This document shows positions 128 to 21,293 of a stretch of DNA of 34,045 nt, one piece after another. The translations under genes were made by a program, and so were the position numbers. This DNA comes from Acutalibacteraceae bacterium (GTDB lineage: Bacteria; Bacillota; Clostridia; Oscillospirales; Acutalibacteraceae). The first letter of the stretch is position 1; each line of letters starts with the position of its first letter. The stretch lies in assembly GCA_045597065.1 (NCBI GenBank), contig JAZODO010000160.1:1-34045 (forward strand), written 5' to 3'. A model generated the notes under the pieces. That model did not search any database. It was not told where the DNA came from and saw nothing but the letters and a program-made list of their open reading frames with translations.

Positions 128-445
128 TTATTTACTAAAAATAATATCTGAACCAACGGCCTTTTCAACCGATGCTTTAAGTCTGTTTACACCGATGCCG
201 TTGTTATTTTTTACTCCCGGAAGAGGAATAATTGCAGGAAGGAACTTTTCGTCGAACTCGGCAATTTCGGTTTCGAGTTCGGCAGCGAGTTCTTCGGTTA
301 TATAAATAACACCGTATTCGCCCGCGCAAAGTTCTTTAAAGGCTGATTTAGCGTTTGCTAAATCGTCGCAAGGGAAGGTGTTGATTCCAACCGCGGCAAA
401 GCCTTTTATGCTTTCGCGGTCGCCAAAGAAAGCAATTTTAACCAT
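128..445 (-). CDS. atpF: V-type ATP synthase subunit F
   Basis: 105 aa, MVKIAFFGDRESIKGFAAVGINTF..., with typical subunit F size and N-terminal beta-strand/GF.AVG motif. Its start overlaps the subunit C stop by 8 nt, suggesting translational coupling. Confidence 0.85.
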   Translation of the reverse strand: MVKIAFFGDRESIKGFAAVGINTFPCDDLANAKSAFKELCAGEYGVIYITEELAAELETEIAEFDEKFLPAIIPLPGVKNNNGIGVNRLKASVEKAVGSDIIFSK

Positions 446-1418
446 ATAGTTCCCTCAACATTTCTCTAACTTTTTTATCGTTTTCGCCTGTTGCTATGCC
501 GCTTTTAATAATTCGGCAAACCTTAATTTCGGCAAGTTTTGCCCAAAGGTAGGCAACAAGAGGTTCGGCCCCTACTGCAACATATTTAGCGCCAAGAACT
601 ATCGACATTAGGTAGTTATCGACAAATCGTTCGAACTCGCTTGGCGAAACCTTATAGGCTTCGACCGCTTCGGCACATTTAAATGCAGTTATATTTGATA
701 AAAGGTTTAACACTTCAGGGGCGCCTTTTAGCGCCGCTTCTTTTAGGCGAGTTTTTGAAACAGGGCCGGTAGTTATTAAACAAATATCGCAAAAATCGGC
801 CGATTTGTTTGCCCTAGCTAAACGAATTGCCGCTTTAACGTTATCGTAAAAAACGGTTGCAAGTAGTAAGTCTTTTAGCATTGGGATTTTTTCTAAATTA
901 GCCTTTTCCGTTTTATAAAGGTTTGCGGCAGTATCTAAAATAGCGTCGCAAAGTTGCGAATCGCCAATTTTAAATAGGGCGTTATAAGCCTTTTCGGCCG
1001 CAGAGGCCATATAAACAGGAAGCAGATTAAACTTTTGCTCCGACACTGCTTTTATTACCGTTTCGGGAGAAACTATTGTTGGGTATAAAAGTAGGTCGTT
1101 ATAATCGGCCGAACAAAGGGTTGCCTTTAAAACGGCCTTTATGTTATGAAAATCGTTAGAGATGATAAAAGGTTCGAACACCGAAAAATCGGGCGCGATT
1201 TCTGCCGCATATTTCCAAACCTTTTGCTCTTCGGCTATAAGAAGCTCATCGATATCACTACCAGTATCGGCAAAGCCGAAGCCTTTATCTTTTAAAAAGG
1301 CAGAAAGAGCCGAAACCGAATTTAAAACGAGCATTTGCTCGATATCTTGTTTTTTAAAAAGCGCAGTTTCTTTTGCTCTTACGTTACCTACCGCAAAGGC
1401 GTAGGATTTAGTTGGCAT
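438..1418 (-). CDS. atpC: V-type ATP synthase subunit C (bacterial/archaeal C, eukaryotic d-like)
   Basis: 326-aa all-helical protein located between E and F as in Enterococcus/Clostridium V-ATPase operons. GGAGGTG RBS. Confidence 0.8.
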   Translation of the reverse strand: MPTKSYAFAVGNVRAKETALFKKQDIEQMLVLNSVSALSAFLKDKGFGFADTGSDIDELLIAEEQKVWKYAAEIAPDFSVFEPFIISNDFHNIKAVLKATLCSADYNDLLLYPTIVSPETVIKAVSEQKFNLLPVYMASAAEKAYNALFKIGDSQLCDAILDTAANLYKTEKANLEKIPMLKDLLLATVFYDNVKAAIRLARANKSADFCDICLITTGPVSKTRLKEAALKGAPEVLNLLSNITAFKCAEAVEAYKVSPSEFERFVDNYLMSIVLGAKYVAVGAEPLVAYLWAKLAEIKVCRIIKSGIATGENDKKVREMLRELYG

Positions 1419-1438
1419 TAAATCACCTCCAAGAAAAA

Positions 1439-2023
1439 TTAGTTAGAAAATAAAATTTTGTTAATTTTATCTTCGAGCTCTTCGCGTTTATCGTTTATAA
1501 CCGCCTTTAAGGTTAGGTTGTATTCGATATCGCCGTATTTTAAAATAAAGCCCGAAGCAATATCGGCCGCAGTTTCGCTAACCGATAAATTTAGGTTTTC
1601 TTTATTTAAAAGGTCTTTAAATAAAGAAACATTACGCGCGAGGTCGGCTTTTCCTAAAATAAGCGTTCCCTCTTGCGCTTTAGCGTTTTTAGCCGCAAGC
1701 GCCGCTAAAAGGGTAAAATATTCCTTATCGGGCAAAGAGATAATTTGCTCTTCGGCCAAATTTAGGGTTTTTTCAATTTCGGCATGTCTTTTAGCGAGTT
1801 TAGCGTCGCGCACGATTAGGTCGGCCGCCGACTCGGCATTATCTTTAATGCTTTTAGCGCGAAGCAAGGCATTAGAGGTAGTGGTAGCTGAATAAGACTT
1901 AACCATTTGGTTGGTTTGGGCCTTTATTTCTTCACACACTGCAGCCGCGTCGTTTAAAGTTTTTTCGGCCTGCAAGTTAGCATCATCTAATATGCCTTGC
2001 AGGATTTTTTCTTCTGCACTCAT
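1439..2023 (-). CDS. atpE: V-type ATP synthase subunit E (peripheral stalk)
   Basis: 194 aa with a long charged coiled-coil N-terminus and a globular C-terminus, positioned between K and C. Confidence 0.8.
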   Translation of the reverse strand: MSAEEKILQGILDDANLQAEKTLNDAAAVCEEIKAQTNQMVKSYSATTTSNALLRAKSIKDNAESAADLIVRDAKLAKRHAEIEKTLNLAEEQIISLPDKEYFTLLAALAAKNAKAQEGTLILGKADLARNVSLFKDLLNKENLNLSVSETAADIASGFILKYGDIEYNLTLKAVINDKREELEDKINKILFSN

Positions 2024-2036
2024 AGTAAACCGCCTA

Positions 2037-4483
<2,447 letters not shown>

Positions 4484-6297: not shown

Positions 6298-7728
6298 TTA
6301 TTTCCAATAATCAGTGTCTGAAGTTATGCCAATACTCTTGGCTTTAAAGGTTGGAACCAGACCTTGTTTTCTTTGCTTTTCGTAGTCTTTAAGGGCTTTA
6401 AAGGCATATTTGCCGAGTATTAGTATTACGGGAATATTTACTAAGGTCATAAGGCCCATAGTAATATCGGCAATATTCCAAAGAAGCCCGGCTTCGAGGC
6501 CTGCTCCAAGCAGAATTACAAGCGCGGCTACTATATAGTAAACGGTAAAGAAAGCTTTACCCGGTTTTCTTTTAAAGATATGGAAAAAGCCTTTTTCTAC
6601 ATAGTAGAGGTTGCCGATAAGGGTTGTAAAGGCGAAAAGAACCATTGCAACGGTTATAAAGATAGGTCCGAATTTACCGAACACATTAGATAAGCAGGAT
6701 TGAACATAGTCGGCTCCGCTAAAATCTTTAGAAGGTTCAACACCCGAGCAAACACACATAAAAGCGGTAGCCGAGCAAACAAGTAAGGTATCGATAAATA
6801 CCGAAAGCACTTGAACAAGGCCTTGTTTTACGGGGTGAGAAACATTGGCCGAGGCCGAAGCGTTAGGAGCAGAACCTACGCCTGCTTCGTTAGAAAATAG
6901 GCCACGTTTAATGCCAAGCATTACACAAGAACCCGCAAAGCCGCCGAATATAGCCTTAAAGTCGAATGCGCCGGTAAAGATTTTTGCAAAAACCGAGGGA
7001 ATAGAGGTTATATTTAAAATCACAACCACGAGCGCAACCAAAATATAGGCAACGCCCATAACGGGAACGCAAAAACCGGTTACTTTAAGGATTCGTTTGC
7101 CGCCGCCAAAAAGACAAAAAGCAACAAGAGCGGCAACTAGGGCGCCAATAATCCAAGAGGTAACGCCCTCTTTATAAAAACTATAACCTGTAAAGGTGGA
7201 TTGTAGGTTATAAGAGGCTAGCATATTAAAGCCCACGCCGTATGTAATAATTAAAAGAACCGAAAAGAGCACCGCAAGTTTTCTTTTTTTAAGGGCGGTT
7301 TCAATATAATAAGCGGGGCCACCGTAGGCTCCGTCGGGACCTCTACGCTTATAAATTTGGGCAAGGGTACTTTCGACAAAGGCCGAAGCGCTACCGATAA
7401 TAGCGATAACCCACATCCAAAAAATAGACCCGTAACCGCCAAGACAAATAGCGGTTGCAACACCTACTATATTACCTGTTCCAACTCTGGAAGCGGTTGA
7501 AACCATTAGGGCTTGGAAAGAGGAAACCCCTTTACCATCGGTTGGTTTTTCGGTTACTGCGCGGAATTGTTCTTTAAGTAGGCGGAAAGAGACGAATTTG
7601 GTTCTAAAGGTAAAATAAAGACCTGCGGCTACTAAAAGAATTATTAAAATATAGCCATAGAGCACATCTACTGCTTGACCGCTAAAAACATTTAGTCGGT
7701 CGAAAACCCAGCTGAAAAAATCTGCCAA
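6298..7728 (-). CDS. Sodium:alanine (amino acid) symporter, AGCS family
   Basis: 476-aa polytopic protein with SSFQALMVSTASRVGTGNIVGVATAI and GLFSNEAGVGSAPNA motifs typical of alanine/glycine:cation symporters. TTG start with an AAGGATGA RBS. Confidence 0.9.
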   Translation of the reverse strand: MADFFSWVFDRLNVFSGQAVDVLYGYILIILLVAAGLYFTFRTKFVSFRLLKEQFRAVTEKPTDGKGVSSFQALMVSTASRVGTGNIVGVATAICLGGYGSIFWMWVIAIIGSASAFVESTLAQIYKRRGPDGAYGGPAYYIETALKKRKLAVLFSVLLIITYGVGFNMLASYNLQSTFTGYSFYKEGVTSWIIGALVAALVAFCLFGGGKRILKVTGFCVPVMGVAYILVALVVVILNITSIPSVFAKIFTGAFDFKAIFGGFAGSCVMLGIKRGLFSNEAGVGSAPNASASANVSHPVKQGLVQVLSVFIDTLLVCSATAFMCVCSGVEPSKDFSGADYVQSCLSNVFGKFGPIFITVAMVLFAFTTLIGNLYYVEKGFFHIFKRKPGKAFFTVYYIVAALVILLGAGLEAGLLWNIADITMGLMTLVNIPVILILGKYAFKALKDYEKQRKQGLVPTFKAKSIGITSDTDYWK

Positions 7729-7751
7729 ATTGTATCATCCTTTCGATAAAC

Positions 7752-8903
7752 TTATATCTTAGCTTTAATAAACTTTAAAATCTCGTTTTGGTCTTTTGCT
7801 AAAAGTTTTCCTTGTGTACAGTTTGGCTTTCCGCCGCCTTTACCCGAAAAAGCTCCGTTTAACTCTTTAGTAATTTCGGTTAGGTTTTCGCTTTTAGATA
7901 AGAGAAGATAATTAAAATTATTACCCTCTTCAAAAGAGAAAAGGGCTACTGTTTTAGCCGTTTCACAAAGGGTGTTCGCGATATTTCTAAGACAATTAAA
8001 ATCGGCATTTTGGGTAAAGCCAATAACCGACTCCCCTACCTTTTCGGTTTTAAGGTTTGCGGTAGCGAGTTTTTCTAAAAGCCCCTTATTTTCAAAGCGG
8101 GCAGCATTAAGGTCGGCAGATAGTTTTTCAACCGACTCGGCTATTTCTTCTCTTTTTGCAGAAAGTTGTTTCATAATACTTTTAGCAGCGTTATGAAGAT
8201 AAGTATAATCGGCAAGAGCGAGCGAACCCGCAACCATTTCGATACGAGTACCACCCTTAAAAGAGTAAAAGTTTACTATTTTAATAAGGCCAATCTCCCC
8301 CGCTCTAGCAGGATGGGGAGCGCAACAAGCACAGATGTCGAAACCTTCTACATTTATAAGGCGAACGCCCTCTTTAAGTTCTATTTTGCTACGGCAATTT
8401 ATATTTTCAAACTCTTCTACCGTTGGGGTTAGTACCGTAATTTCGGCATTTTCGAAAACGGCGCGGTTGGCTTCGAGTTCTATCTGCTCAATGTTTTCGG
8501 GGGTTAGTGTACCGCTAACATCAAACGTAACAAGCGAATCGTTCATATGAAAACCAACGTTATTAAACCCGAAAAGTTTATGAATAACGCCCGATAAAAT
8601 ATGTTCGGCACAGTGGTTTTGCATACGAGAAAAGCGAAGTGCGAAGTCAATTTTACCGACTACTTCTTCTAAAACATTCAAGGGGCTTTCCAGGGTATGA
8701 ACAACCTCTTCGCCACTTTCTTGAACATCTAAAACGGGGATGCCATTTAACACACCTTTATCGGGGGCTTGGCCGCCGCCTTCGGGAAAAAATGCAGTTT
8801 TATCGAGGATTACTAAAAACTTACCGTTTTTCTCTGTACAGGAAACTACGGTAGCAGTAAATTCTTTTATATAAGAATTTGTTTCGTAAAGTTTTTGTGT
8901 CAT
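7752..8903 (-). CDS. alaX: AlaX-L type alanyl-tRNA editing protein (Ser/Gly-tRNA(Ala) deacylase; AlaRS second additional domain plus DHHA1-like C-terminus)
   Basis: 383 aa. Zinc-site motifs HxxxH (NHCAEHILSG) and CxxxH (CACCAPHPARAGEIG) are present, plus C-terminal GKGGGKPNCTQGK resembling the DHHA1 GGG..AQG motif. Confidence 0.8.
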   Translation of the reverse strand: MTQKLYETNSYIKEFTATVVSCTEKNGKFLVILDKTAFFPEGGGQAPDKGVLNGIPVLDVQESGEEVVHTLESPLNVLEEVVGKIDFALRFSRMQNHCAEHILSGVIHKLFGFNNVGFHMNDSLVTFDVSGTLTPENIEQIELEANRAVFENAEITVLTPTVEEFENINCRSKIELKEGVRLINVEGFDICACCAPHPARAGEIGLIKIVNFYSFKGGTRIEMVAGSLALADYTYLHNAAKSIMKQLSAKREEIAESVEKLSADLNAARFENKGLLEKLATANLKTEKVGESVIGFTQNADFNCLRNIANTLCETAKTVALFSFEEGNNFNYLLLSKSENLTEITKELNGAFSGKGGGKPNCTQGKLLAKDQNEILKFIKAKI

Positions 8904-9032: not shown

Positions 9033-10439
9033 TTAGTTAAGTTTTTGTTCGAGTAATGATTTAATTACGGCAGGGTCGCCAATTCCTTTTAGTTCCTTCA
9101 TACAAGAACCAAAGAGGGCCATTAGCGCTTTAACCTTACCGCCCTTATAGTCGGCAACGGCGGCAGGATTTTCGGCAATAACGCGGTCGACAACCGCTTC
9201 GATTTGGGCGGCATCTACCTTAGCATTAAGTCCCTGTTCTTCGCAATAGTTGTCAACATCTACATCATTTTCAAATACAGCGGCAAGAACCTTTTTACCC
9301 GCATTACGGGTAATTTCGCTACTATCGACAAGTTCGATAATACGGGAAAGTTTTTCGGGCGCGATAGATAAGGTTTCTAGGCCTAAATAGCGCATACGGC
9401 TCATACATTCGGTTAAAATCCAAGAAGCAACGCTCTTAGGTTCTCTGCCCATTTCTACAACCTTATCGAACATAGCGCAAAGTTTAGCATCGCTTGCCAA
9501 TACTGCGGCTTCTTTTACAGCAATACCCATATCTACGTATTTTTGGCCCTTTTCTTCGGCAGTAGCGGGCATGCCGGCCTTAATTTCGGCAAGCCATTCA
9601 TCATCGATAATAATAGGCATAAGGTTCGGGTCGGGGAAATAGCGGTAGTCGCCCGCGGTTTCTTTATTTCTCATAGGGAAGGTTCTACGCTTAACTTCGT
9701 CCCAACGGCGGGTTTCTTGAACGAGCATTTCGGTACGGCGTTCGATAGCGTCGACATGGCGAACCTTTTCAAATTCGATAGCGTCTTTAATTTCGGCGAA
9801 TGAGCTCATATTTTTAATTTCGCTTCTAACGCCTAGTTGGTCGGAACCTTCGGGGCGAACAGAGATGTTAACGTCGCAACGCATAGCGCCTTCTTCACAT
9901 TCCGAAATTCCGGCAAATTGAAGAGCGGCTTTAAGCTTTTTAAGGTAGGTTATAACCTCGTCGGAACTTCTGAAATCGGGTTTAGAAACGATTTCGATTA
10001 GAGGTACACTTGTACGGTTATAGTCTACAAGAGAGGTGTTGGTAGCGTCGTCGTGAACGAGTTTACCCGCATCTTCTTCTACGTGAATTTGCTTAATGCC
10101 TATTTTTCTTTCGCCTACTTCTACGCTGCCTTCTACGCAAACGGGGTTAAACCATTGGGTAATTTGGTAGGCGCAGGGTAGGTCGGGATAATAGTAACTT
10201 TTTTTATCGAAGGTAGTATACTGGTTAATTTTGCAGTTAAGCATTAAACCCGCTTTAACGGCGAGTTCGATAGCGTGTTTGTTAGTTACGGGAAGCATAC
10301 CTGGCATACCCGAGCAAGCAGGACAAACACAGTCGTTAGGCTCATCGGCAGCGGCATGGCCACCGCAAGAACAAAAAAGTTTTGAATCGGTAGCAAGTTC
10401 TACGTGGGTTTCCAGACCAATAACGAGTTCGTATTTCAT
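9033..10439 (-). CDS. gatB: Asp-tRNA(Asn)/Glu-tRNA(Gln) amidotransferase subunit B
   Basis: MKYELVIGLETHVEL..., DKKSYYYPDLP, IHVEEDAGK and a C-terminal YqeY-like tail are present. I place the start at the ATG at 10439, which has an AAGGAGGAAG RBS and lies 1 nt after the gatA stop. The ORF-track start at 10472 adds 11 unsupported residues. Confidence 0.9.
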   Translation of the reverse strand: MKYELVIGLETHVELATDSKLFCSCGGHAAADEPNDCVCPACSGMPGMLPVTNKHAIELAVKAGLMLNCKINQYTTFDKKSYYYPDLPCAYQITQWFNPVCVEGSVEVGERKIGIKQIHVEEDAGKLVHDDATNTSLVDYNRTSVPLIEIVSKPDFRSSDEVITYLKKLKAALQFAGISECEEGAMRCDVNISVRPEGSDQLGVRSEIKNMSSFAEIKDAIEFEKVRHVDAIERRTEMLVQETRRWDEVKRRTFPMRNKETAGDYRYFPDPNLMPIIIDDEWLAEIKAGMPATAEEKGQKYVDMGIAVKEAAVLASDAKLCAMFDKVVEMGREPKSVASWILTECMSRMRYLGLETLSIAPEKLSRIIELVDSSEITRNAGKKVLAAVFENDVDVDNYCEEQGLNAKVDAAQIEAVVDRVIAENPAAVADYKGGKVKALMALFGSCMKELKGIGDPAVIKSLLEQKLN

Positions 10440-10440
10440 A

Positions 10441-11646
10441 TTATGCTTCCTCCTTTTCCAAAACTTTTGCAAAACTTAAAAGTTCGCTTTCGGCAAAATA
10501 GTTGCCAACAAGTTGAATTCCGCCGGAAACTACCGCAGGCATACCTGTAATAGAAGCGGGCGCGGTATATGCGCTTTCTTCGAAAACGGTTCTAAACTGT
10601 TCGGCAAATTCTTCGCCGTCGAGAGTTTTTGCGGTAGAAACGTCGAGTTCTTTAGTTTGACTAAATGCGGGAATTAAGAGTGCGGTAAAGCCTTTTTCGA
10701 AAAGCGCGGTTAAAGCTTCTACCGCGAGTTTACGAATTTTAAGGGCCTTATCGTAGCAAGATTCGTATTTACCTTTAGAGAGTACGTCGGAACCGTAGAT
10801 AATGGTAGCTTTGGTTAAGAAGTTAAAGCCTTCGGTTCGGCTACCAACATAGAGTTCGTCGATATTTTTGTATTTTTCGGTTCTGTGGCCATATTTAACG
10901 CCATCGAAACGAGAAAGGTTATTGGTAGTTTCGGCCGACATTAGAATATTCCAAGCGGTTTGAATATCTTTTACAAGGGGAAGAGAGATTTCTTCTACTT
11001 CTACGCCCTGTTTTTTAAGTTCTTCGGCAGTATCAAGTAGTTTTACCTTAGCCTCATTAGTAGCAAGGTTTAAAAGTTCTTTAATAATAGCAACCTTTTT
11101 ACCCTTTACAGAAAGGCCTGTATTATATTCGTATTTTTCGGTTTTAAGTGAGGTTCCGTCTTTAGAGTCGAAACCTGATACTACGCCTAAAACTTCGGCA
11201 GCGGTATCGGCATTTTTAGCAGTAACGCCAATTTGTTCTCCCGAACAAGCGCAAGCGATAACACCATAACGGGAAACAGTACCGTAGGTGGGCTTTACAA
11301 AGGTAACTCCCTTTATTGCGGCGGCACGACGGGGCGCACCGTTTAAATCAACATTTAAAGCGGCTTTTACCGCGCCTTCGGCTACAAGAGCGGCAGCGGC
11401 ACAAGTTTCATTTTCAGAAGTTTCGCCGTAAAGGTCGAGCCCGAATTCGCCAACAGCGGTTTTACCCGAAAGGGTGTAACCGGCAGCGGTAAGTTTTTCT
11501 ACTGCGGTTGCAGTAAATAAGGGAACAAAGTTTTTAAGCATTTTAGAACCGGCAGTTGCAGGATAGCCTTTTACTAAAATAGTATCGTCTACCGCGATGT
11601 TGCCGTTTTTACTGATTTCTGTAATATATTTAGCCAATTTACACAC
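10441..11646 (-). CDS. gatA: GatA-like amidase-family protein, N-terminally truncated and apparently lacking the Ser-cisSer-Lys triad
   Basis: Collinear with GatA (AGSKMLKNFVPLFTATAVEKL, KPTYGTVSRYG, NLSRFDGVKYG, SRTEGF) and placed between gatC and gatB. It is about 400 aa and has no GGSSGGS loop. The start is ambiguous: GTG at 11646, or TTG at 11637 with better RBS spacing. Confidence 0.75.
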   Translation of the reverse strand: MCKLAKYITEISKNGNIAVDDTILVKGYPATAGSKMLKNFVPLFTATAVEKLTAAGYTLSGKTAVGEFGLDLYGETSENETCAAAALVAEGAVKAALNVDLNGAPRRAAAIKGVTFVKPTYGTVSRYGVIACACSGEQIGVTAKNADTAAEVLGVVSGFDSKDGTSLKTEKYEYNTGLSVKGKKVAIIKELLNLATNEAKVKLLDTAEELKKQGVEVEEISLPLVKDIQTAWNILMSAETTNNLSRFDGVKYGHRTEKYKNIDELYVGSRTEGFNFLTKATIIYGSDVLSKGKYESCYDKALKIRKLAVEALTALFEKGFTALLIPAFSQTKELDVSTAKTLDGEEFAEQFRTVFEESAYTAPASITGMPAVVSGGIQLVGNYFAESELLSFAKVLEKEEA

Positions 11647-11652
11647 CTACCT

Positions 11653-13758
11653 TTACTTTACGAGTCTGGGAACCTGCCAACTATCTTCGGTAGCCTGAGG
11701 AGCGCCCGAAAGTAGGTCGGCACGGGAGAAGGGTTGTTTTCTTTCGTCGGTTCTAAGAACATTGGTCATAGGACGAACGTGAACCATAGATTCGGTATTT
11801 TCGGTATCTACCTTACCGAGTTCTTCTTCTTTAAGGGCCATGTTTTTAAAGATTTTTTCCATAGCCTTCTTTTCGTCGGTATCAAATTTAAGTTGGTTTA
11901 CCTGTTCGAGTGCATCGAGTTTTGCTTTACCCGAAGTAACCCCGGCTTTAGAGGCAGAAACGGCCGAAGCAAAAGCCGAGCCATCGCCCGCAGAACCGAA
12001 GGTATCGGCACCTTCTTTACCGCGAATAGCAACGTTGGCTTCGAATAGTTGAAGTTCGGTAACTTCGCTTGGAGCGCCAAGTAACTGGTCTTGGGCGGCG
12101 CCATCTAGCGGGAATGCGATAACGTCGCGAATGGTTTCGGTGTCGGCTAAAAGCATTACAATACGGTCGACACCGGGGGCCATACCTGCATGAGGGGGCG
12201 CACCGAATTGGAAAGCGTTATAAAGCGCAGAGAAACGCTTTTCAACTTCGCTTTCTTCGTAGCCCGCAATAGAGAAGGCCTTTCTCATAATTTCGGGGCT
12301 GTGGTTACGAACTGCACCGGATGCAAGTTCTATACCGTTACAAACAAGGTCGTACTGGTAGGCGTTAATTGTACAAGGGTCTTTTGTTTCGAGCGCTTCG
12401 AGTCCGCCTTGGGGCATTGAGAAGGGGTTGTGGGTAAAGATGATGCTGTCGGTAGTTTCGTCGAGTTCGTACATAGGGAAATCTACAACGAAGCAGAATT
12501 CGAAAGAATCTTTATTGATAAGGCCGAGTTCGTTACCAAGCCAGGTACGAATAACACCTGCGTTTTTGTCGGCAGTGCCGGACACGTTGTCGCAAATGAA
12601 GAAGATTGTTTCTCCCTCTTTAACGCCGGTTAGTTCTACGATTTCGCGTTTTTGTTCGTCAGATAAAACCTTTGAAATCGGGTCGTCTTTAAAGGTATAG
12701 GTAGCGGCATCGAGTAAAGTGATATGAGCAAGGCCTGCCATTTTTGCTTGTTTTTGAGCAAAGTCGAGCGATTTATCGAAGAACCAACGCTCTGCCTTAC
12801 AAGGAGCAACAATACCGCGAACGGGTTTGTTCATAAAGGGTTTAAAGGGAGCGCGGGTAAAGAAATCGGAAAGGTCGCAAATAATAAGGGGGTTTCTAAG
12901 GTCGGGCTTATCGGAGCCGTATTTAGCCATTGCTTCGGCAAAGGGAATTCTTCTAAAAGGGGTAGAAGAAATAGGCTTATCAGAGAAGGTTCTAAACACA
13001 TCGGCAACAACCGATTCACAAACTTCCAGAACTTCATCTTGGGTAGCAAAGGCCATTTCGAAGTCGAGCTGATAGAACTCGCCGGGGGAACGGTCGGCAC
13101 GAGCATCTTCGTCTCTAAAACAGGGGGCAATTTGGAAATAACGGTCGAAACCGGACACCATTAAAAGTTGTTTAAATTGCTGAGGTGCTTGGGGAAGAGC
13201 GTAGAATTTACCCGGATGTTTACGAGAAGGTACAAGGAAGTCGCGAGCGCCTTCGGGAGAAGAGGCGGTTAGAATAGGAGTTTGAATATCTAAAAATCCG
13301 CGTTCTTCCATAAGGCGGCGCATATGGCCGATAACCTTACTGCGAAGAATAATATTATCGTGAAGTTTTTTAGAACGTAGGTCTAAAAAGCGGTGTTTAA
13401 GACGGATGTTTTCGTTAGTATTTACCGCGCCTACTTCAAAGGGTAAATCTCTGGTACAAGCGCCGAGTACGGTTACGCTATCGGCTACAAGTTCTACGTC
13501 GCCTGTTGCGATTTTTGGGTTTTCGGTTCCCGCATCACGAAGGGTAACGGTACCCTTTGTAGAAATAACGGTTTCTTTGGCGATTCCTTTAAGCAGGTTT
13601 TCGTTATGAACAACTACCTGGGTTACGCCCGTTTCGTCGCGCAAATCGACAAACAAAACTCCGCCGTGGTCGCGAATTACTTCGACCCAGCCTGCGAGTT
13701 CTACCGTTTGACCGATATGCTCTTTTCTTATTTCGTTGCAACGATGAGTTCTATACAT
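11653..13758 (-). CDS. aspS: Aspartyl-tRNA synthetase (bacterial type with GAD insertion) fused in frame to a C-terminal GatC domain
   Basis: Starts at MYRTHRCNEIRKEHIGQTVELAGWV (GGAGG RBS). Class II motifs are present (FRDEDARADRSPGEFYQLDFE; GAPPHAGMAPGVDRIVML). After ...EANVAIR comes a 34-aa G/A/S-rich linker (nt 11920-12021), then 88 aa of GatC-like sequence (nt 11656-11919) ending VHVRPMTNVLRTDERKQPFSRADLLSGAPQATEDSWQVPRLVK. The 42 codons upstream of the ATG in the ORF track cover the T-box terminator and are not coding. Confidence 0.85.
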   Translation of the reverse strand: MYRTHRCNEIRKEHIGQTVELAGWVEVIRDHGGVLFVDLRDETGVTQVVVHNENLLKGIAKETVISTKGTVTLRDAGTENPKIATGDVELVADSVTVLGACTRDLPFEVGAVNTNENIRLKHRFLDLRSKKLHDNIILRSKVIGHMRRLMEERGFLDIQTPILTASSPEGARDFLVPSRKHPGKFYALPQAPQQFKQLLMVSGFDRYFQIAPCFRDEDARADRSPGEFYQLDFEMAFATQDEVLEVCESVVADVFRTFSDKPISSTPFRRIPFAEAMAKYGSDKPDLRNPLIICDLSDFFTRAPFKPFMNKPVRGIVAPCKAERWFFDKSLDFAQKQAKMAGLAHITLLDAATYTFKDDPISKVLSDEQKREIVELTGVKEGETIFFICDNVSGTADKNAGVIRTWLGNELGLINKDSFEFCFVVDFPMYELDETTDSIIFTHNPFSMPQGGLEALETKDPCTINAYQYDLVCNGIELASGAVRNHSPEIMRKAFSIAGYEESEVEKRFSALYNAFQFGAPPHAGMAPGVDRIVMLLADTETIRDVIAFPLDGAAQDQLLGAPSEVTELQLFEANVAIRGKEGADTFGSAGDGSAFASAVSASKAGVTSGKAKLDALEQVNQLKFDTDEKKAMEKIFKNMALKEEELGKVDTENTESMVHVRPMTNVLRTDERKQPFSRADLLSGAPQATEDSWQVPRLVK

Positions 13759-14005
13759 TAAATTGCCTCCATATTGCTTTTTATAAACAAAAAATAAAGC
13801 CCCGAGAATACCAAAAAGTATTCTCGGGACGAATAGAATAAAATATCCGCGGTGCCACCCGGTTTGGTGTTTTACTAAAAACACCCGCTTTTATATTTAG
13901 TTGAGACGGCGACGAAGCGTTCCCTACTTACTACTTATCTGAAACGCGCTTTCAGTCGGCGACGCGTTCTCCCTGGCAGACTTTCCAAAAAAGCAGAGTC
14001 TTCGT
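13759..14005 (-). promoter_or_regulatory. T-box riboswitch leader (tRNA-sensing); best-fitting specifier codon AAC (Asn) at 13919-13921
   Basis: Minus-strand RNA contains the T-box sequence AAACCGGGUGGCACCGCGG (13847-13865). It also has an AG-bulge-like AGGGAGA, a distal-loop-like GACUGAAAG, and a terminator/antiterminator pair. AAC followed by a purine (G) sits immediately 5' of CUUCGU, which can pair with ACGAAG at the 5' end. Confidence 0.8.
13788..13828 (-). terminator. T-box leader terminator (attenuator) hairpin
   Basis: Minus-strand RNA forms cccgagaauac(uuuuug)guauucucggg, an 11-bp perfect stem, followed by GCUUUAUUUUUU. It lies 30 nt upstream of the aspS ATG. Its 5' arm is preceded by UUCGUCCC, the usual antiterminator 3' strand. 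Confidence 0.8.
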
Positions 14006-14010
14006 TTATT

Positions 14011-14038
14011 ATTATACCAAAAAAGTTTAATTTGTCAA
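14011..14038 (-). promoter_or_regulatory. Sigma-A-type promoter of the T-box/aspS-gatC-gatA-gatB operon
   Basis: The minus strand reads TTGACA, a 16-nt spacer, then TATAAT, with TGg just upstream of the -10 (extended -10). Confidence 0.6.
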
Positions 14039-16129: not shown

Positions 16130-18187
16130 TTAGTCGGCTTTGCTTTCGGCAATAATTTTTTGAGCTATTGAGGCAGGGACTTCTTCATAACGGGCAAATT
16201 CGGTATAGAAGGAACCAACACCACGGGTTACAGAGCGGAGAACTGTTGGGAAATCGGCAAGTTCGCTTTCGGGAACTTCGGCTGTAATAACCATAAGTTT
16301 TCCGTCGGGGTCCATACCAAGCACTCTACCGCGACGCTTTGTAACGTCGCCCATAATATCACCCGAGTTATCGGACGGAACGGTTGCAACAAGGGTTACA
16401 ACGGGTTCGAGCAGTACGGGGTTTGCTTCGGGGATACCTGCTTTAAAGGCAAGCGAAGCGGCGGTTTTAAAGGCAAGTTCCGAAGAATCTACCGGATGGT
16501 AGGAACCGTCGGTTAAGGTGGCCTTTACGCCAACCATCGGGTAGCCCGCTAAAACGCCTGTAAGGGCAGATTCTTGTAATCCCTTTTCAACAGCGGGGAA
16601 ATAGTTTTTAGGAACCGCGCCGCCAAATACGGTTTCGGCAAATTCTAAACCTTCGCAGTCGGAGGGTTCGAACTCAATCCAAACATCGCCAAACTGGCCA
16701 TGACCGCCCGATTGTTTTTTATGGCGGCCCTGAGCTTTAGCCTTTTTACGAATAGTTTCGCGGTAGGCAACCTTGGGGGCTTCGAATAATACTTCTACGC
16801 CAAATTTAGCCTTTAATTTGCTTGCAACAATGTCGAGATGTTGTTCGCCAAGACCTGATAGAATGAGTTCGCCGGTAGCATCGTTATTTTTAAGGGTAAC
16901 GGTTGGGTCTTCTTCGGCTAAACGCATAAGGCCGGCGGCGAGTTTTTCTTCTTCGCCCTTATTTTTGGGGCGAACAGCCATTTTATAGTTAGGAAGTTCA
17001 TAGGAAATATCGGGCAAACGAATAGGACGAGCGGGAGAACAAAGGGTATCGCCCGTTCCGGTTGCATTAAGCTTTGCAACGGCGCCGATATCGCCCGCAT
17101 AAACACAGGAAGTTTCTACCTGTTTTTTACCGCAAACGAAGTAAAGTTTACCAATACGTTCGTTAGCGCCTGTTCTCATATTAAGAAGGGTCATATCGGA
17201 GGTAACCTTACCGCTTACAACCTTAAAGTAAACAAGTTTTCCAACAAACGGGTCTACTACTGTTTTAAATACGATAGCGGCGGTTTGAGCATCGTCGCTA
17301 ACGGTAAGTTCAATTTCGTTACCGTTATTATCTACGCCGATTTCGCCGGCAACCGTTTCGGCCCAAGGAGCAAGCCAGATAAGGCCGTTTAAGAGTTGGT
17401 CAACGGCTTGAAGTTCGGCCGCACTTCCGCAGAATACGGGAGCAATTTCACCGCGGCGAACGCCTGTTGCAAGGCCCATAATAAGTTCGTCGGGGGTAAA
17501 TTCTTCGCCCGAGAAATATTTTTCCATAAGTTCTTCGCTTGTTTCGGCAACCGCTTCGTTAATAGCGGTACGAAGACCTTCTAATCGGTGGCCCATATCG
17601 GGCATAGGAACAACCGAAGCCTTACCGTTTTCGTAAGCATAGGCGCGGTATTCGATTAGATTTATGTAACACTGAACCTTATTTTCAACAACATAGGGAA
17701 CAACTATTGGGCAAACCATAGGACCGAAGGTTGTTTTAAGGTCTTCAAACACCTTATAAAAATCGGCATGTTCGTGGTCGATTTTATTTATAAAGAATAA
17801 TTTAGCAATACCTTTTTTAGTAGCGGCATCGAAGGCTTTTTTAGCGCCTACCGAAACGCCGCTCTTACCCGAAATTACAATAACCGAACTACCGGCTGCG
17901 CGGAAGCCTTCGCTTACCGAAGCCGAAAAGTCGAACTGACCGGGAGTATCGATAACGTTAATTTTAACATCTTTCCATTCACAGGGAATAACCGATGCCG
18001 ATACGCTGGATTTTCTGCGGATTTCTTCAGGGTCAAAATCGGAAACGGTATTACCTTCGGCAATAGTGCCTAGGCGGTCGGACTTACCTGTAATATAATA
18101 AGCCGCCTCTACCAAAGAGGTTTTTCCTGCCGAAGCATGGCCGGAAAATACAACGTTTCGAATATTTTTTGCTTTATAGTCTTTCAA
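16130..18187 (-). CDS. Elongation factor G paralogue (EF-G2-like translational GTPase) with divergent switch regions
   Basis: 685 aa with five-domain EF-G length. G1 is GHASAGKTS, G3 is DTPGQFDF, G4 is NKID. TTG start with an AAAGGGG RBS. Confidence 0.8.
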   Translation of the reverse strand: MKDYKAKNIRNVVFSGHASAGKTSLVEAAYYITGKSDRLGTIAEGNTVSDFDPEEIRRKSSVSASVIPCEWKDVKINVIDTPGQFDFSASVSEGFRAAGSSVIVISGKSGVSVGAKKAFDAATKKGIAKLFFINKIDHEHADFYKVFEDLKTTFGPMVCPIVVPYVVENKVQCYINLIEYRAYAYENGKASVVPMPDMGHRLEGLRTAINEAVAETSEELMEKYFSGEEFTPDELIMGLATGVRRGEIAPVFCGSAAELQAVDQLLNGLIWLAPWAETVAGEIGVDNNGNEIELTVSDDAQTAAIVFKTVVDPFVGKLVYFKVVSGKVTSDMTLLNMRTGANERIGKLYFVCGKKQVETSCVYAGDIGAVAKLNATGTGDTLCSPARPIRLPDISYELPNYKMAVRPKNKGEEEKLAAGLMRLAEEDPTVTLKNNDATGELILSGLGEQHLDIVASKLKAKFGVEVLFEAPKVAYRETIRKKAKAQGRHKKQSGGHGQFGDVWIEFEPSDCEGLEFAETVFGGAVPKNYFPAVEKGLQESALTGVLAGYPMVGVKATLTDGSYHPVDSSELAFKTAASLAFKAGIPEANPVLLEPVVTLVATVPSDNSGDIMGDVTKRRGRVLGMDPDGKLMVITAEVPESELADFPTVLRSVTRGVGSFYTEFARYEEVPASIAQKIIAESKAD

Positions 18188-18360: not shown

Positions 18361-19227
18361 TTAGTATAATATTTTCTTAATTTTTTGTTTTAATATAACC
18401 CTAAACGAAAATAAGCAAACGGCCGCCTTAATAAGGCCGCAAAAAAAGCAAACTATATAGAGAAAAATATCGAGCCTTGAAAAAATATGACCGATAGAGG
18501 CGGTTGAAACGGCGCTTGAATAAGGGTAGATTAGGGTAGACGCGAATTCGCTTCCGAAAACCAATAAGGTATTTAAAAAAGAAATTAAAACAAAGCCGAG
18601 CCCAAAGATAAAAGATAGCGCCATAGGCGGATTTTTAATATTTTTACCCAAAACAGAAAGGGGCAAAAGCGACGATATAAAATATAGGAAATAGCGAATA
18701 AACGCCCCCAAAGCCCCAAAAAGAGTTGGCTCTTTATAGGGTATTAAATATTTAATTTGGGCAAAGGGCAACGAAAAGCCGAACATTAAAAGAATTAAAA
18801 CGGTAAAAAGCGGAAAAATTAAAAGGCTAAATTTAAAAAGTTTCTCCCTTTTAGAAAAGGCTAATACTACCGATAGCCCCAAAAATGCTATAAAGGGTAG
18901 CGCTATACTGCTCCCCTTTAACATTACGCCAGAAACATAGGCCGAAAGATTTAAAAGGCAAAAGGTAAGGCTAATTAAAATAGCAACAGAAAGCCCTAAA
19001 AACAAAACCCACGAAATAAAAGGTTTATTTTTCAGTTTTAAAAGGGTTTTACTTTTTAAGGCGAATTTTATAAAAAACGCACAAGCGGTAACAACCGCCG
19101 CCGCCAGTACAAAACCTAAAAGGTCGTTCGCGGTATTTTTAGTAAAATAAAAAAGCAACAAATTATCGCCTACAACGGTAGTTGCCGCAAGGGCAAAAAA
19201 CTTTCTGTTAAAACAAAGTTCTTTCAT
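18361..19227 (-). CDS. Polytopic membrane protein, probable GerAB/GerKB-type (permease-like) germinant receptor B subunit, short form
   Basis: 288 aa, about 8 hydrophobic segments by eye. It is the third gene after GerAA-like and GerAC-like genes. The assignment is mainly positional. Confidence 0.5.
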   Translation of the reverse strand: MKELCFNRKFFALAATTVVGDNLLLFYFTKNTANDLLGFVLAAAVVTACAFFIKFALKSKTLLKLKNKPFISWVLFLGLSVAILISLTFCLLNLSAYVSGVMLKGSSIALPFIAFLGLSVVLAFSKREKLFKFSLLIFPLFTVLILLMFGFSLPFAQIKYLIPYKEPTLFGALGAFIRYFLYFISSLLPLSVLGKNIKNPPMALSFIFGLGFVLISFLNTLLVFGSEFASTLIYPYSSAVSTASIGHIFSRLDIFLYIVCFFCGLIKAAVCLFSFRVILKQKIKKILY

Positions 19228-19243
19228 TTATATCTCCCTCAGA

Positions 19244-19828
19244 TTATGCCATTTGGTTACCAAAATAGCATAAACCTAAAACCTTTGGCAGATTGTTTTT
19301 AGCGCTTATTAAGGGGAGCGAAAACCTACCCTCGTTTACTAAAAGGGCGGTTTGAATTTCGAAAAGGGCAGTATGGTCGCCAAAGCCGAAATATTTAGCG
19401 TTTTCCCGAGTTAAGGCGCTAATTTCGCTTCCCGACGAAAGAGAAAAAAGGTCTTCTATTTCCGAGGCCGAAACAAGCGGCGTACTAAGCGAAACATTAA
19501 GTTTAGAGCAAAGGTCTAAAACCGTTTCTATTTGGTTTTTAGGCATATTTTGATTTATAGCAATTAACGAACAATGAGAAAAAGAGGGGGTTTTATTAAG
19601 TTTTGTTTTTATATCGTTAAGGGCGCTAAAAGCGGTATCTCCCCTACCCGATACAACCTCTAATTTAGAATTTTCAGCCGACACATTTACATATTGAAGA
19701 TAAATTTCGATATTTTCCTCTACGGCCGAAAAGCCTATTGCCGAAACGGTATATACGGCGTTTGGCTCGGTATAGCCGCAACCCGAAAGAGCCAAAAGAC
19801 ATAAAACTAAAAATAACGCTTTTTTCAT
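19244..19828 (-). CDS. Lipoprotein, probable Ger(x)C-type germinant receptor C subunit, half-length
   Basis: 194 aa with signal peptide and lipobox MKKALFLVLCLLALSGC. Its start overlaps the gerAA-like stop (ATGA), suggesting translational coupling. Canonical GerAC proteins are roughly twice as long. Confidence 0.5.
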   Translation of the reverse strand: MKKALFLVLCLLALSGCGYTEPNAVYTVSAIGFSAVEENIEIYLQYVNVSAENSKLEVVSGRGDTAFSALNDIKTKLNKTPSFSHCSLIAINQNMPKNQIETVLDLCSKLNVSLSTPLVSASEIEDLFSLSSGSEISALTRENAKYFGFGDHTALFEIQTALLVNEGRFSLPLISAKNNLPKVLGLCYFGNQMA

Positions 19829-21279
19829 AAAGTTTTCCTATACTTATTTTTTGTTTGAATTTTTGGGCGAGTAATCATTTTGGTCCAGTTAGCCCTTACT
19901 AAAACATCTTTAAGCCCCTGAAAAGTTGGGGTATTTAGAGATAATGTGGCGCTAGCGCCCAGCGACTTTAAACCCAAAATATGAATTATTACAACACTCC
20001 ACAAAAGAAGTATTCCAAAAACTCCAAGCAAAGCCGCAGCGAATATAAAGCCAAAGCGCAGATAGAAAACGGCAGCGCGAAGGCGCGGCACCATAAGACC
20101 GCATATTCCCGCAAGGGCAACGGCAATAAGAATTGGCGCGCTAATGATTTTAGCTTCTACCGCCGATTGACCTACAACCAAACCGCCAACGATACTAAGG
20201 GCGTGGCCAACGCTTTGGGGCATTCTAACCCCGGTTTCGCGAAGAATTTCAAAGGTAAGGCAGAGCAGTACACATTCGGCCAAACCAGAAAAAGGAACCC
20301 CCTGGCGCGAACGGGAAATAGTTTGGGCAAAGGCTTCGGGCAAAAATTCGAAATGGTAGGTTATAAAGGCCAAAAAAAGGCCCGGAACCGTAACCGAAAG
20401 AAAAAAAGCCAAAAACCTTAAAAACCTTTGGGCCGAGGCTAAAAGATAGCCTATATAATAGTCTTCGTCGGATTGAAAGTTTTCGGAAAAAAGGTAGGGC
20501 ATAGTTATAACAACGGGTGTTGTGTCTACAATCAAAGCTATTCTTCCCTCTAAAAGTCTGGCCGCTACAACATCGGGTCGCTCGGTTGTTCCTACCGTTT
20601 TAAAAAGAGAAAACTTATTATCTCTAACAAGTTCGGTAATATAGTTAGAATCTAAAACCGAATCTATATTTATTTTTGAAAGCTTGGTTTTTAAAGTCCT
20701 TAACATTTCGCGGTTTACAAGCGATTTTAAATAGCAAATAAAAACCATTGTATTTGTTCTTTTTCCAAGGGTTATAAGCTCTGCGCAAAAGTCGGGGGTT
20801 TTAAGGCGGCGGCGAAGCATTGCGAGATTAAACATTGCCGCTTCGTCGAACCCTTCGCGAGGGCCTTCTAAAACCTTTTCGTTTTCGGGTTCGGTAATGC
20901 CGCGAGTTCTCCAACCTTTGCTATTTACAACTATTACGGTTTGGCTATTTTCGAGCAAAAGTAAAGTATCGCCATAGAGGACTGACGAAATCGCGTCTTC
21001 TACCAAAACGGTTTTTTTAATTTCGCTGGCAAAAAGGAGTTTATCGGCAACAAAATCGGCTATAGGTAAATTTTTATCTATTTCGGTTGCGAAAATTAGG
21101 GGTTTTACAACCGATTCATTAATAAGTTCTACGTTTACCATTCCGTCAAAATAAAAGAGGCAAGCCTTTTCATTTTGAAAAACGAGTTCCCTTTTGCGAA
21201 GAACGCTATCGTTTAAAAAAAGGCTTTCGATATATTTTATATTTAAATTTAAAGATTTAAAAAAACGCTTTTCTTCCAT
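19825..21279 (-). CDS. GerAA/GerKA-family spore germination protein (A subunit)
   Basis: About 484 aa with a soluble N-terminal domain and a C-terminal membrane domain. The family hallmark region is present: GRIALIVDTTPVVITMPYLFSENFQSDEDYYIGY. I prefer the ATG at 21279 (GGGTGA RBS) over the TTG at 21291. Confidence 0.85.
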   Translation of the reverse strand: MEEKRFFKSLNLNIKYIESLFLNDSVLRKRELVFQNEKACLFYFDGMVNVELINESVVKPLIFATEIDKNLPIADFVADKLLFASEIKKTVLVEDAISSVLYGDTLLLLENSQTVIVVNSKGWRTRGITEPENEKVLEGPREGFDEAAMFNLAMLRRRLKTPDFCAELITLGKRTNTMVFICYLKSLVNREMLRTLKTKLSKINIDSVLDSNYITELVRDNKFSLFKTVGTTERPDVVAARLLEGRIALIVDTTPVVITMPYLFSENFQSDEDYYIGYLLASAQRFLRFLAFFLSVTVPGLFLAFITYHFEFLPEAFAQTISRSRQGVPFSGLAECVLLCLTFEILRETGVRMPQSVGHALSIVGGLVVGQSAVEAKIISAPILIAVALAGICGLMVPRLRAAVFYLRFGFIFAAALLGVFGILLLWSVVIIHILGLKSLGASATLSLNTPTFQGLKDVLVRANWTKMITRPKIQTKNKYRKTL

Positions 21280-21293
21280 TTTTTCACCCAAAA

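Follow-up and report, generated by a model that had tools for sequence, protein, structure and literature searches.

The window analysed here is a complete contig of 34,045 bp from an Acutalibacteraceae bacterium (GenBank JAZODO010000160.1, assembly GCA_045597065.1), the reverse strand of which carries an operon of aspartyl-tRNA synthetase (AspRS) and tRNA-dependent amidotransferase genes. The unit consists of a T-box leader with an asparagine specifier, a gene in which aspS and gatC are joined, a gatA-like gene and gatB; its first gene, aspS-gatC, is a real gene fusion. The fusion frame, 13758..11656 (-) with the stop codon at 11655..11653, translates without interruption to 701 amino acids from the start MYRTHRCNEIR, as a first-pass annotation of the region, made from the sequence alone, had claimed. 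The sequence GGAGG lies 8 nt upstream of the ATG at 13758. A 743-amino-acid ORF starting at GTG 13884, present in the mechanically made ORF list, was rejected as the gene; its extra 42 codons (13759..13884) overlap the terminator/antiterminator region of the T-box leader.

Residues 1-579 of the fusion protein (12022..13758 (-)) constitute the AspRS part, with an OB anticodon-binding domain, a class II catalytic core and a GAD insertion, residues 580-613 (11920..12021 (-)) a Gly/Ala/Ser-rich linker of 34 residues, and residues 614-701 together with the TAA stop codon (11653..11919 (-)) the GatC domain (PF02686, TIGR00135). The linker, nt 12021..11920, and the last 88 residues, nt 11919..11656, have exactly the boundaries that had been assigned to them in the first-pass annotation. 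In the AspRS half, the Pfam domains tRNA_anti-codon (residues 19-98) and tRNA-synt_2 (residues 115-551, 365.7 bits) were found above their gathering scores, and the GAD domain (residues 313-393) was found with 22.7 bits, marginally below its gathering score of 23.4. The aspS equivalog model NF001750 of NCBIfam gave 734.2 bits (cutoff 443) and TIGR00459 gave 591.8 bits (cutoff 373.85), and the top matches of this half in the PDB were AspRS structures (E about 1e-130). These scores place it among the AspRSs of bacterial type, in agreement with the complete bacterial-type enzyme proposed earlier, with only the GAD score marginal.

The GatC model PF02686 matched residues 626-694 with 33.9 bits against a gathering score of 23, covering model positions 2-64 of 66, a significant match within the region (residues ~614-701) that had been predicted to be GatC. 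With the gatC model TIGR00135 the whole fusion protein scored 45.4 bits, below the cutoff of 47.1, and the last 89 amino acids alone scored 49.8 bits, above it (model positions 7-92 of 93). The tail also aligned end to end with the GatC chains of Staphylococcus aureus and Aquifex (phmmer against the PDB, E 0.018-0.036). Both its score and its position in front of gatA-like and gatB identify it as a GatC. There is no free-standing gatC between the fusion and the GatA-like gene, a point on which the first-pass annotation was correct, because the GatA-like gene begins only 15 nt past the fusion stop (TTG 11637), or 6 nt past it if GTG 11646 is the start. The GatA-like frame is the same as that of the fusion, with only TAA-AGG-TAG (11653..11646) between the two; an AspRS-GatC-GatA chain, one more stop-codon loss away, was not seen at any locus examined.

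Related proteins were searched for among 5.8 billion proteins, and related operons in a locus scan with one genome per GTDB species (loci are numbered L001 and so on). The best 120 protein clusters, which come from NCBI, ENA, JGI and Logan assemblies, are 80-93 % identical to the fusion and all 697-707 amino acids long; nearly all have the GatC Pfam match, and they are named only 'aspartate--tRNA ligase'. The fused frame is also present in 12 GTDB species representatives (L003-L012, L014 and L021), belonging to Acutalibacteraceae, 'Clostridia' and mislabelled Lachnospiraceae metagenome-assembled genomes (MAGs). Many of the fused MAGs were recovered from the gut or rumen of goats, reindeer or cattle; the source of one is an anaerobic digester. 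Across the loci the cassette of three genes (aspS-gatC, gatA-like, gatB) is kept and the flanks differ. A search of a representative library with the GatC tail gave no 700-amino-acid representatives among its matches, which comprised fragments (P0122, P0123 and P0165) and free GatCs, and is not a measure of how far the fusion has spread. Three long matches to the tail (P0226, P0191 and P0233) were discarded as spurious, being DUF285/LRR repeat proteins.

Compared with the closest relative, L083 (93 % identical), dN/dS was 0.03 for AspRS, 0.06 for the linker, 0.12 for GatC, 0.10 for the GatA-like protein and 0.06 for GatB, values which are rough because dS is near saturation. By these estimates the linker is under purifying selection, and so is the GatA-like protein (dN/dS about 0.1), even though its catalytic residues have been lost, as described below.

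In three sister species (L013, L015 and L016) the same operon, with the same short GatA-like gene, has aspS and gatC as separate genes. Their AspRS ends with ...EVHIKVRD and a stop codon, which is followed by a spacer of 30-37 nt containing a ribosome binding site and then by a GatC of ~97 amino acids, beginning M....L.KLNQL, which occupies the same operon position as, and is 41-42 % identical to, the GatC of the fusion. In the fused species the AspRS C-terminus leads instead into a linker, absent from the unfused sisters, and then into the same GatC sequence. The linker is 22-35 amino acids long, variable, Gly/Ala/Ser-rich and of two subtypes. In the 50 %-representative library the closest free GatCs have 93 amino acids and are 49-56 % identical to the GatC of the fusion, and the C-terminal motif DSWQVPRLVK is common to the fused and the free GatCs. 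The GatC half of the fusion is judged to be orthologous to the free-standing GatCs of the sister species. At more distant loci, L019 (Caproiciproducens), L020, L023 and L037, aspS is followed by a canonical gatA, encoding a GatA of 480 amino acids, and gatB.

As the sister operons are unfused, the fusion appears to be a local, separate event, and as the degenerate GatA also occurs in those sisters, the degeneration of GatA predates it. The order of events traced in the related genomes is that a canonical aspS-gatC-gatA-gatB operon came first, that GatA then degenerated while the operon, already under T-box control, was still unfused, and that finally the aspS stop codon was lost and the spacer grew into a linker. 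The fusion architecture itself has already been catalogued, since NCBIfam holds a model, NF009460/PRK12820, 'bifunctional aspartyl-tRNA synthetase/aspartyl/glutamyl-tRNA amidotransferase subunit C', with the same order of AspRS and GatC; the first-pass annotation had to this extent overrated the novelty of the fusion. The model has 723 positions, of which 26-710 align with the protein of the window. The latter scored 432 bits and those of L003 and L010 440-451 bits, against a cutoff of 1379, which leaves them outside the family, and these scores are lower than those of the same fused proteins with the plain AspRS model (734-746). The unfused sisters point to an origin of the fusion in the clade of the window independent of that of the NF009460 family. 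The 256-amino-acid fragment P0165 is the C-terminal piece of a different AspRS-GatC fusion lineage, with a shorter linker and a GatC 33 % identical to that of the window; it scored 102.6 bits with NF009460 and is not a member either.

Upstream of the fusion lies a sigma-70 promoter, TTGACA-16 nt-TATAAT (14011..14038 (-)), which is a 12/12 match with a TG extension. It is followed by the T-box leader (13789..14011 (-)), with the Stem I specifier AAC at 13921..13919, the T-box sequence GGGTGGCACCGCG at 13860..13848 and a terminator hairpin with a 14-bp stem and a T-run at 13830..13799. An Rfam scan at gathering thresholds gave no match in the window; in E-value mode RF00230 matched 14011..13822 over the full model (1-219) with 46.6 bits (E=2.8e-9), and the leader of L001 likewise matched with full model coverage (49.1 bits, E=8.6e-10). 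When the leaders of the 12 fused loci were aligned, GGGTGGCACCGCG and the AAC specifier, followed by A or G, were invariant, and RNAalifold predicted 47 pairs, 19 of them with compensatory changes. The leader of L018 (Youngiibacter fragilis) also has GGGTGGCACCGCG and AAC, and those of L037 and the unfused L013, L015 and L016 have one- or two-base variants of the T-box (GGGTGGTACCGCG, GGGTGGTATCGCG) and keep the AAC specifier. The leader thus has a T-box sequence, a specifier codon followed by a purine, an alternative terminator and a place upstream of an aminoacyl-tRNA synthetase gene, and the T-box was accepted on account of conservation and covariation and not of score. Since AAC is an asparagine codon, the operon appears to be built for induction by uncharged tRNA-Asn, and its regulation would be tRNA-Asn-responsive, a feature that had escaped the first-pass annotation. 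A conserved double specifier with overlapping GAA and AAC was considered and rejected, as the base before AAC varies (G, C or T).

T-boxes in front of aspS were also seen in other Clostridia, at L018 (2330..2594), L022 and L037 (262..525), and AAC was identified in L018 and L037 and not in L022. There are no gat genes near aspS in L018 and L022, and in L037 canonical gatA and gatB follow. These loci suggest that dedicated AspRS copies under the control of an Asn sensor are widespread.

The second gene of the operon (10441..11637 (-)) encodes a GatA-like pseudo-glutaminase of 398 amino acids, counted from TTG 11637 (alternative start GTG 11646); the public record has the same 398-amino-acid form under the PGAP name 'hypothetical protein'. 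The protein has an Amidase domain (Pfam Amidase, 175 bits) from which the catalytic residues have been lost. With the gatA equivalog model TIGR00132 it scored only 247.1 bits, below the cutoff of 481, over model positions 60-463, and it is not a GatA by this measure. In an alignment of 14 GatA-like sequences with solved GatA chains and seven canonical GatAs from aspS-linked operons, the position of Lys79 of the S. aureus catalytic triad (K79, S154, S178) is Asp in all 14 members, the GGSSGGS motif, which holds the cis-Ser, is deleted or replaced, the position of the nucleophile Ser178 is Ala, Thr, Ser or Met, and the glutamine-binding Asp has given way to Gly, Ile, Asn or Ser. The proteins also lack about 60 residues at the N-terminus and a C-terminal loop of 10 residues. 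Canonical GatAs have 78 invariant columns; all 14 GatA-like proteins retain the canonical residue in only 27 of these, and in 25 none of them does. Because neither the Ser-cisSer-Lys triad nor the glutamine-binding Asp remains, the GatA-like protein is predicted to be unable to hydrolyse glutamine or asparagine and most likely serves only as a scaffold. Cysteine in the segment ACACSGE was considered as an alternative nucleophile and rejected, since the Cys positions are not conserved.

Lying translationally coupled between gatC and gatB, the GatA-like gene occupies the gatA slot in every fused and unfused member, and it is intact in 13 of the 14 species with a full-length sequence. In L015 the GatA-like gene (7048..8253) has an in-frame stop codon at 7831..7833 that gives two ORFs, behind which there may lie either an error of sequencing or a true pseudogene. 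The suggestion in the first-pass annotation that the synthetase is tethered to an amidotransferase holds in so far as GatA-like and GatB genes do follow the fusion, but the partner is not a standard GatCAB, its GatA-like subunit being catalytically dead as a glutaminase.

The third gene, gatB (9033..10439 (-)), starts with an ATG at 10439, one base after the GatA-like stop codon, and encodes a protein of 468 amino acids, an apparently intact kinase/transamidase subunit. It scored 556.6 bits with NF004012 (cutoff 338) and 490.7 bits with TIGR00133 (cutoff 314.8), which assigns it to GatB, and both the GatB_N and the GatB_Yqey domains of Pfam were found. The Glu10/His12 motif, VIGLETHVEL, aligns with VIGLEVHVEL of S. 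aureus. Of 82 columns that are invariant in canonical GatBs, 64 (78 %) are kept in all 14 sequences and four are changed in every one; on average 89 % of these residues are kept. The most notable of the four changes concerns the Lys of the PDLPK motif, which is Cys or Gly in all 14 GatBs (Cys89 in the window, nt about 10175..10173, corresponding by alignment to S. aureus Lys88), and the other three are R to K, G to S and Y to F, S or A. Lys88 presumably lines the ammonia tunnel, and the change at this position may reflect a remodelling of the tunnel, which is a lead and not a result. The lineage-specific changes in GatB suggest co-adaptation with the degenerate GatA-like subunit.

A signature of non-discriminating (ND) AspRS, consisting of His31 and Gly83 in the anticodon domain (Pseudomonas aeruginosa numbering), has reportedly been described by Bernard et al. 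in 2006. His31 (RDHGG) is invariant in the fusion AspRSs and is also found in the solved ND enzymes (5gro, 4rmf, 5w25 and 4wj3), with Leu in Escherichia coli. That the fusion AspRS is non-discriminating, i.e. that it would also charge tRNA-Asn, is only suggested by this residue, and the Asn T-box and the fusion to GatC lend it indirect support.

An AlaX-like gene (7752..8903 (-)), encoding a free-standing tRNA editing protein with a tRNA-synt_2c fragment, tRNA_SAD and DHHA1, lies 130 nt downstream of gatB, and in L083 its start overlaps the gatB stop codon; it was rejected as an operon member, since only this closest relative also has it next to gatB and none of the other loci contains it. A 685-amino-acid protein of the EF-G family with a TTG start, encoded two genes upstream of the operon (16130..18187 (-)) and syntenic in L083, may be an EF-G paralogue. 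Genes for V-type ATPase subunits (I, c and AC39/d) and a GerA-type spore germination receptor operon are located at 438..4483 (-) and 18361..21291 (-), and these are consistent with the chromosome of a spore-forming member of the Clostridia.

The operon resembles the Asn-transamidosomes of Thermus thermophilus, Helicobacter pylori and P. aeruginosa (PDB 3KFU, 4WJ3), complexes of ND-AspRS, tRNA-Asn and GatCAB, in its partners and its three predicted activities, and the aim would likewise be to channel Asp-tRNA-Asn from AspRS to GatB without letting it go. Its AspRS is of the bacterial type with GAD, as in H. pylori and P. aeruginosa. In the known complexes the parts are held together non-covalently on a tRNA scaffold, and the complexes of bacterial, GAD-containing type are dynamic and unstable and fall apart on charging (PMC3367201), whereas in the window AspRS and GatC form one polypeptide and GatA has no glutaminase site. 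A gatC-gatA fusion in Mycobacterium smegmatis (PMC7541841) and fungal GatF (PMC4027206) are precedents in that a GatC-type subunit tolerates fusion or a long extension and still encircles GatA-GatB, but there the partner is GatA or an N-terminal scaffold domain and not an upstream aminoacyl-tRNA synthetase. The GlnRS of Deinococcus radiodurans, which has a C-terminal YqeY/GatB-tail domain (PMC1865053), is likewise an aminoacyl-tRNA synthetase fused to a module of the amidotransferase pathway, although that module is a tRNA-binding domain which helps GlnRS itself and does not recruit an amidotransferase.

Clostridium acetobutylicum has a T-box-controlled tRNA-dependent Asn pathway with an extra AspRS and an extra GatCAB (Saad et al. 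2012 and 2013, as cited in PMC4206432). The two systems are alike in that an operon of Clostridia couples AspRS and an amidotransferase under a T-box responding to tRNA-Asn. The leader of the window differs from that of C. acetobutylicum in having a variable base before AAC and no conserved second overlapping codon. In the system of Saad et al., aspS, gatC and gatA are reportedly separate, canonical genes. A GatA homologue that reportedly does not work as an amidase but takes the place of GatA in the transamidosome occurs in P. aeruginosa (bioRxiv 10.1101/733030). This protein, the type VI toxin Tse8, acts between bacteria and has an immunity gene beside its own, whereas the GatA-like protein of the window is a resident subunit of the operon. 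In a search of the literature no paper was found on an AspRS-GatC fusion, the NF009460 family or a catalytically dead GatA.

Indirect synthesis of Asn-tRNA-Asn carries the risk that Asp-tRNA-Asn is released into translation, and known organisms use transient transamidosomes. For the operon in the window a mechanism may be envisaged in which uncharged tRNA-Asn accumulates, pairs with the AAC specifier and stabilises the antiterminator, so that the operon is transcribed. The AspRS dimer would then carry two GatC tails on flexible linkers of ~34 residues, each of which would wrap and stabilise one GatA-like/GatB pair, as free GatC does. Each tail should nucleate one such pair because GatC is needed for the folding of GatA (PMC2330236) and encircles the GatA-GatB interface (PMC4027206). 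The product would be a constitutive covalent (AspRS-GatC)2(GatA')2(GatB)2 Asn-transamidosome in place of the usual transient, tRNA-scaffolded complex. In it AspRS would aspartylate tRNA-Asn, the acceptor end would move to GatB, by analogy with known transamidosomes, and GatB would phosphorylate and amidate the product to Asn-tRNA-Asn without the mischarged intermediate ever being released. The covalent tether, a role that is deduced from the gene architecture, would thus block the release of Asp-tRNA-Asn and reserve the amidotransferase for AspRS. The scaffold would be the GatA-like subunit, with free ammonia, plentiful in gut and rumen, supplying the amide nitrogen; if the subunit cannot hydrolyse glutamine or asparagine, free ammonia would be the most plausible amide source, and NH4Cl can replace glutamine as the donor for heterotrimeric AdT in vitro (PMC4027206).

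That the fusion is real and that its product forms a tethered transamidosome, regulated by Asn and containing a GatA dead as a glutaminase, is considered likely. Free ammonia as the amide donor, taken as a step by itself, is a plausible but tentative proposal. The more comprehensive view, that Asn-tRNA-Asn is made in the clade by a route depending on ammonia and not on glutamine, with GatA as a pseudoenzyme scaffold, the ammonia path of GatB remodelled and a covalent GatC tether on an ND-AspRS holding a weakened amidotransferase, is possible rather than probable. Several points weigh against the main interpretation. An AlphaFold2 model built for the fusion from 29 homologues, none of them below 80 % identity, was uninformative (mean pLDDT 44, pTM 0.27), and the linker is only presumed to reach from the C-terminus of AspRS to the N-terminus of GatC in the transamidosome. 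At the second ND signature site Gly is found only in the window, with Ser or Glu in the fused relatives and Lys in E. coli, and the T-box score of 46.6 bits is below the gathering score of RF00230, 93, so that by score the leader is not a member of that family. The dS values of 1.2-1.9 are near saturation, which makes the estimates of selection rough. The data consist of loci with their flanks, and a canonical gatCAB, asnS, asnA/asnB or a second aspS may be present elsewhere in the genomes; an active GatA encoded elsewhere could pair with this GatB.

This last point leads to the main competing explanation, a conventional glutamine-dependent complex in which the fused GatC and GatB would pair with an active GatA from elsewhere, the GatA-like protein being an accessory, a regulator or a competitive placeholder. 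A second gatA outside the sampled loci would allow it, and with Tse8 (bioRxiv 10.1101/733030) there is a reported case in which GatA is replaced in the complex by a protein resembling it. It is nevertheless rather unlikely, since the GatA-like gene is found in the gatA slot, translationally coupled, in each fused and unfused member, appears to be under purifying selection and moves with the cassette as a unit, and since the lineage-specific changes in GatB, including the loss of the PDLPK Lys, suggest co-adaptation. The destroyed glutaminase site and the four canonical-invariant positions changed in all GatBs would also agree with a GatA-like/GatB pair that no longer amidates, in a tethered complex that would only bind, phosphorylate or sequester Asp-tRNA-Asn or serve another purpose, Asn-tRNA-Asn being made by AsnRS. 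This is improbable in view of a GatB that scores 556.6 bits against a cutoff of 338 and keeps on average 89 % of the canonical-invariant residues, and of an Asn-specifier T-box, the logic of which is sensible only if the gene products raise the level of Asn-tRNA-Asn.

The GatC-like tail might alternatively be vestigial or purely structural on a normal AspRS, without binding GatA-like or GatB, and its modest scores (TIGR00135 at 45.4 against 47.1 in the whole protein, E 0.018-0.036 in the PDB search) could be read in this way. Yet PF02686 is passed, as is TIGR00135 when the tail is scored alone, the tail aligns end to end with solved GatC chains, keeps the DSWQVPRLVK motif and has a dN/dS of 0.12, and the operon contains no other gatC, while the folding of GatA is reported to need GatC (PMC2330236); such a tail is therefore highly improbable. 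Nor is it credible, beyond a negligible chance, that the fusion is an artefact of assembly or sequencing, with a stop codon or frameshift missed between aspS and gatC. A stop codon does occur there in the three related species with unfused genes, but the same frame of 697-707 amino acids recurs in the best 120 clusters, from many independent assemblies, and in the 12 species representatives, where a stop codon or frameshift in the linker would have spoken against the first-pass annotation. Moreover, a linker of 22-35 codons is not a readthrough of the 30-37 nt spacer, and purifying selection appears to act on it.

Taken alone, the fusion adds a new example, of moderate interest, to an architecture already catalogued; together with the pseudo-GatA and the Asn T-box it represents a variant transamidosome system. 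As a natural covalent tether it would be a different, hard-wired answer to the release of Asp-tRNA-Asn, and it would offer structural biologists a stable complex of the bacterial type. Pathway reconstructions for these MAGs miss GatC and GatA because the annotation says 'aspartate--tRNA ligase' and 'hypothetical protein'. A GatA without glutaminase would also be a natural experiment on the roles of GatA and GatC beyond catalysis. If the ammonia-dependent interpretation is true, no natural tRNA-dependent amidotransferase lacking a glutaminase would be known before this one, nor would any obligate, covalent transamidosome have been recognised as such. The dead GatA matters more than the fusion; it would tie translation directly to ambient ammonia in these anaerobes of gut and rumen.

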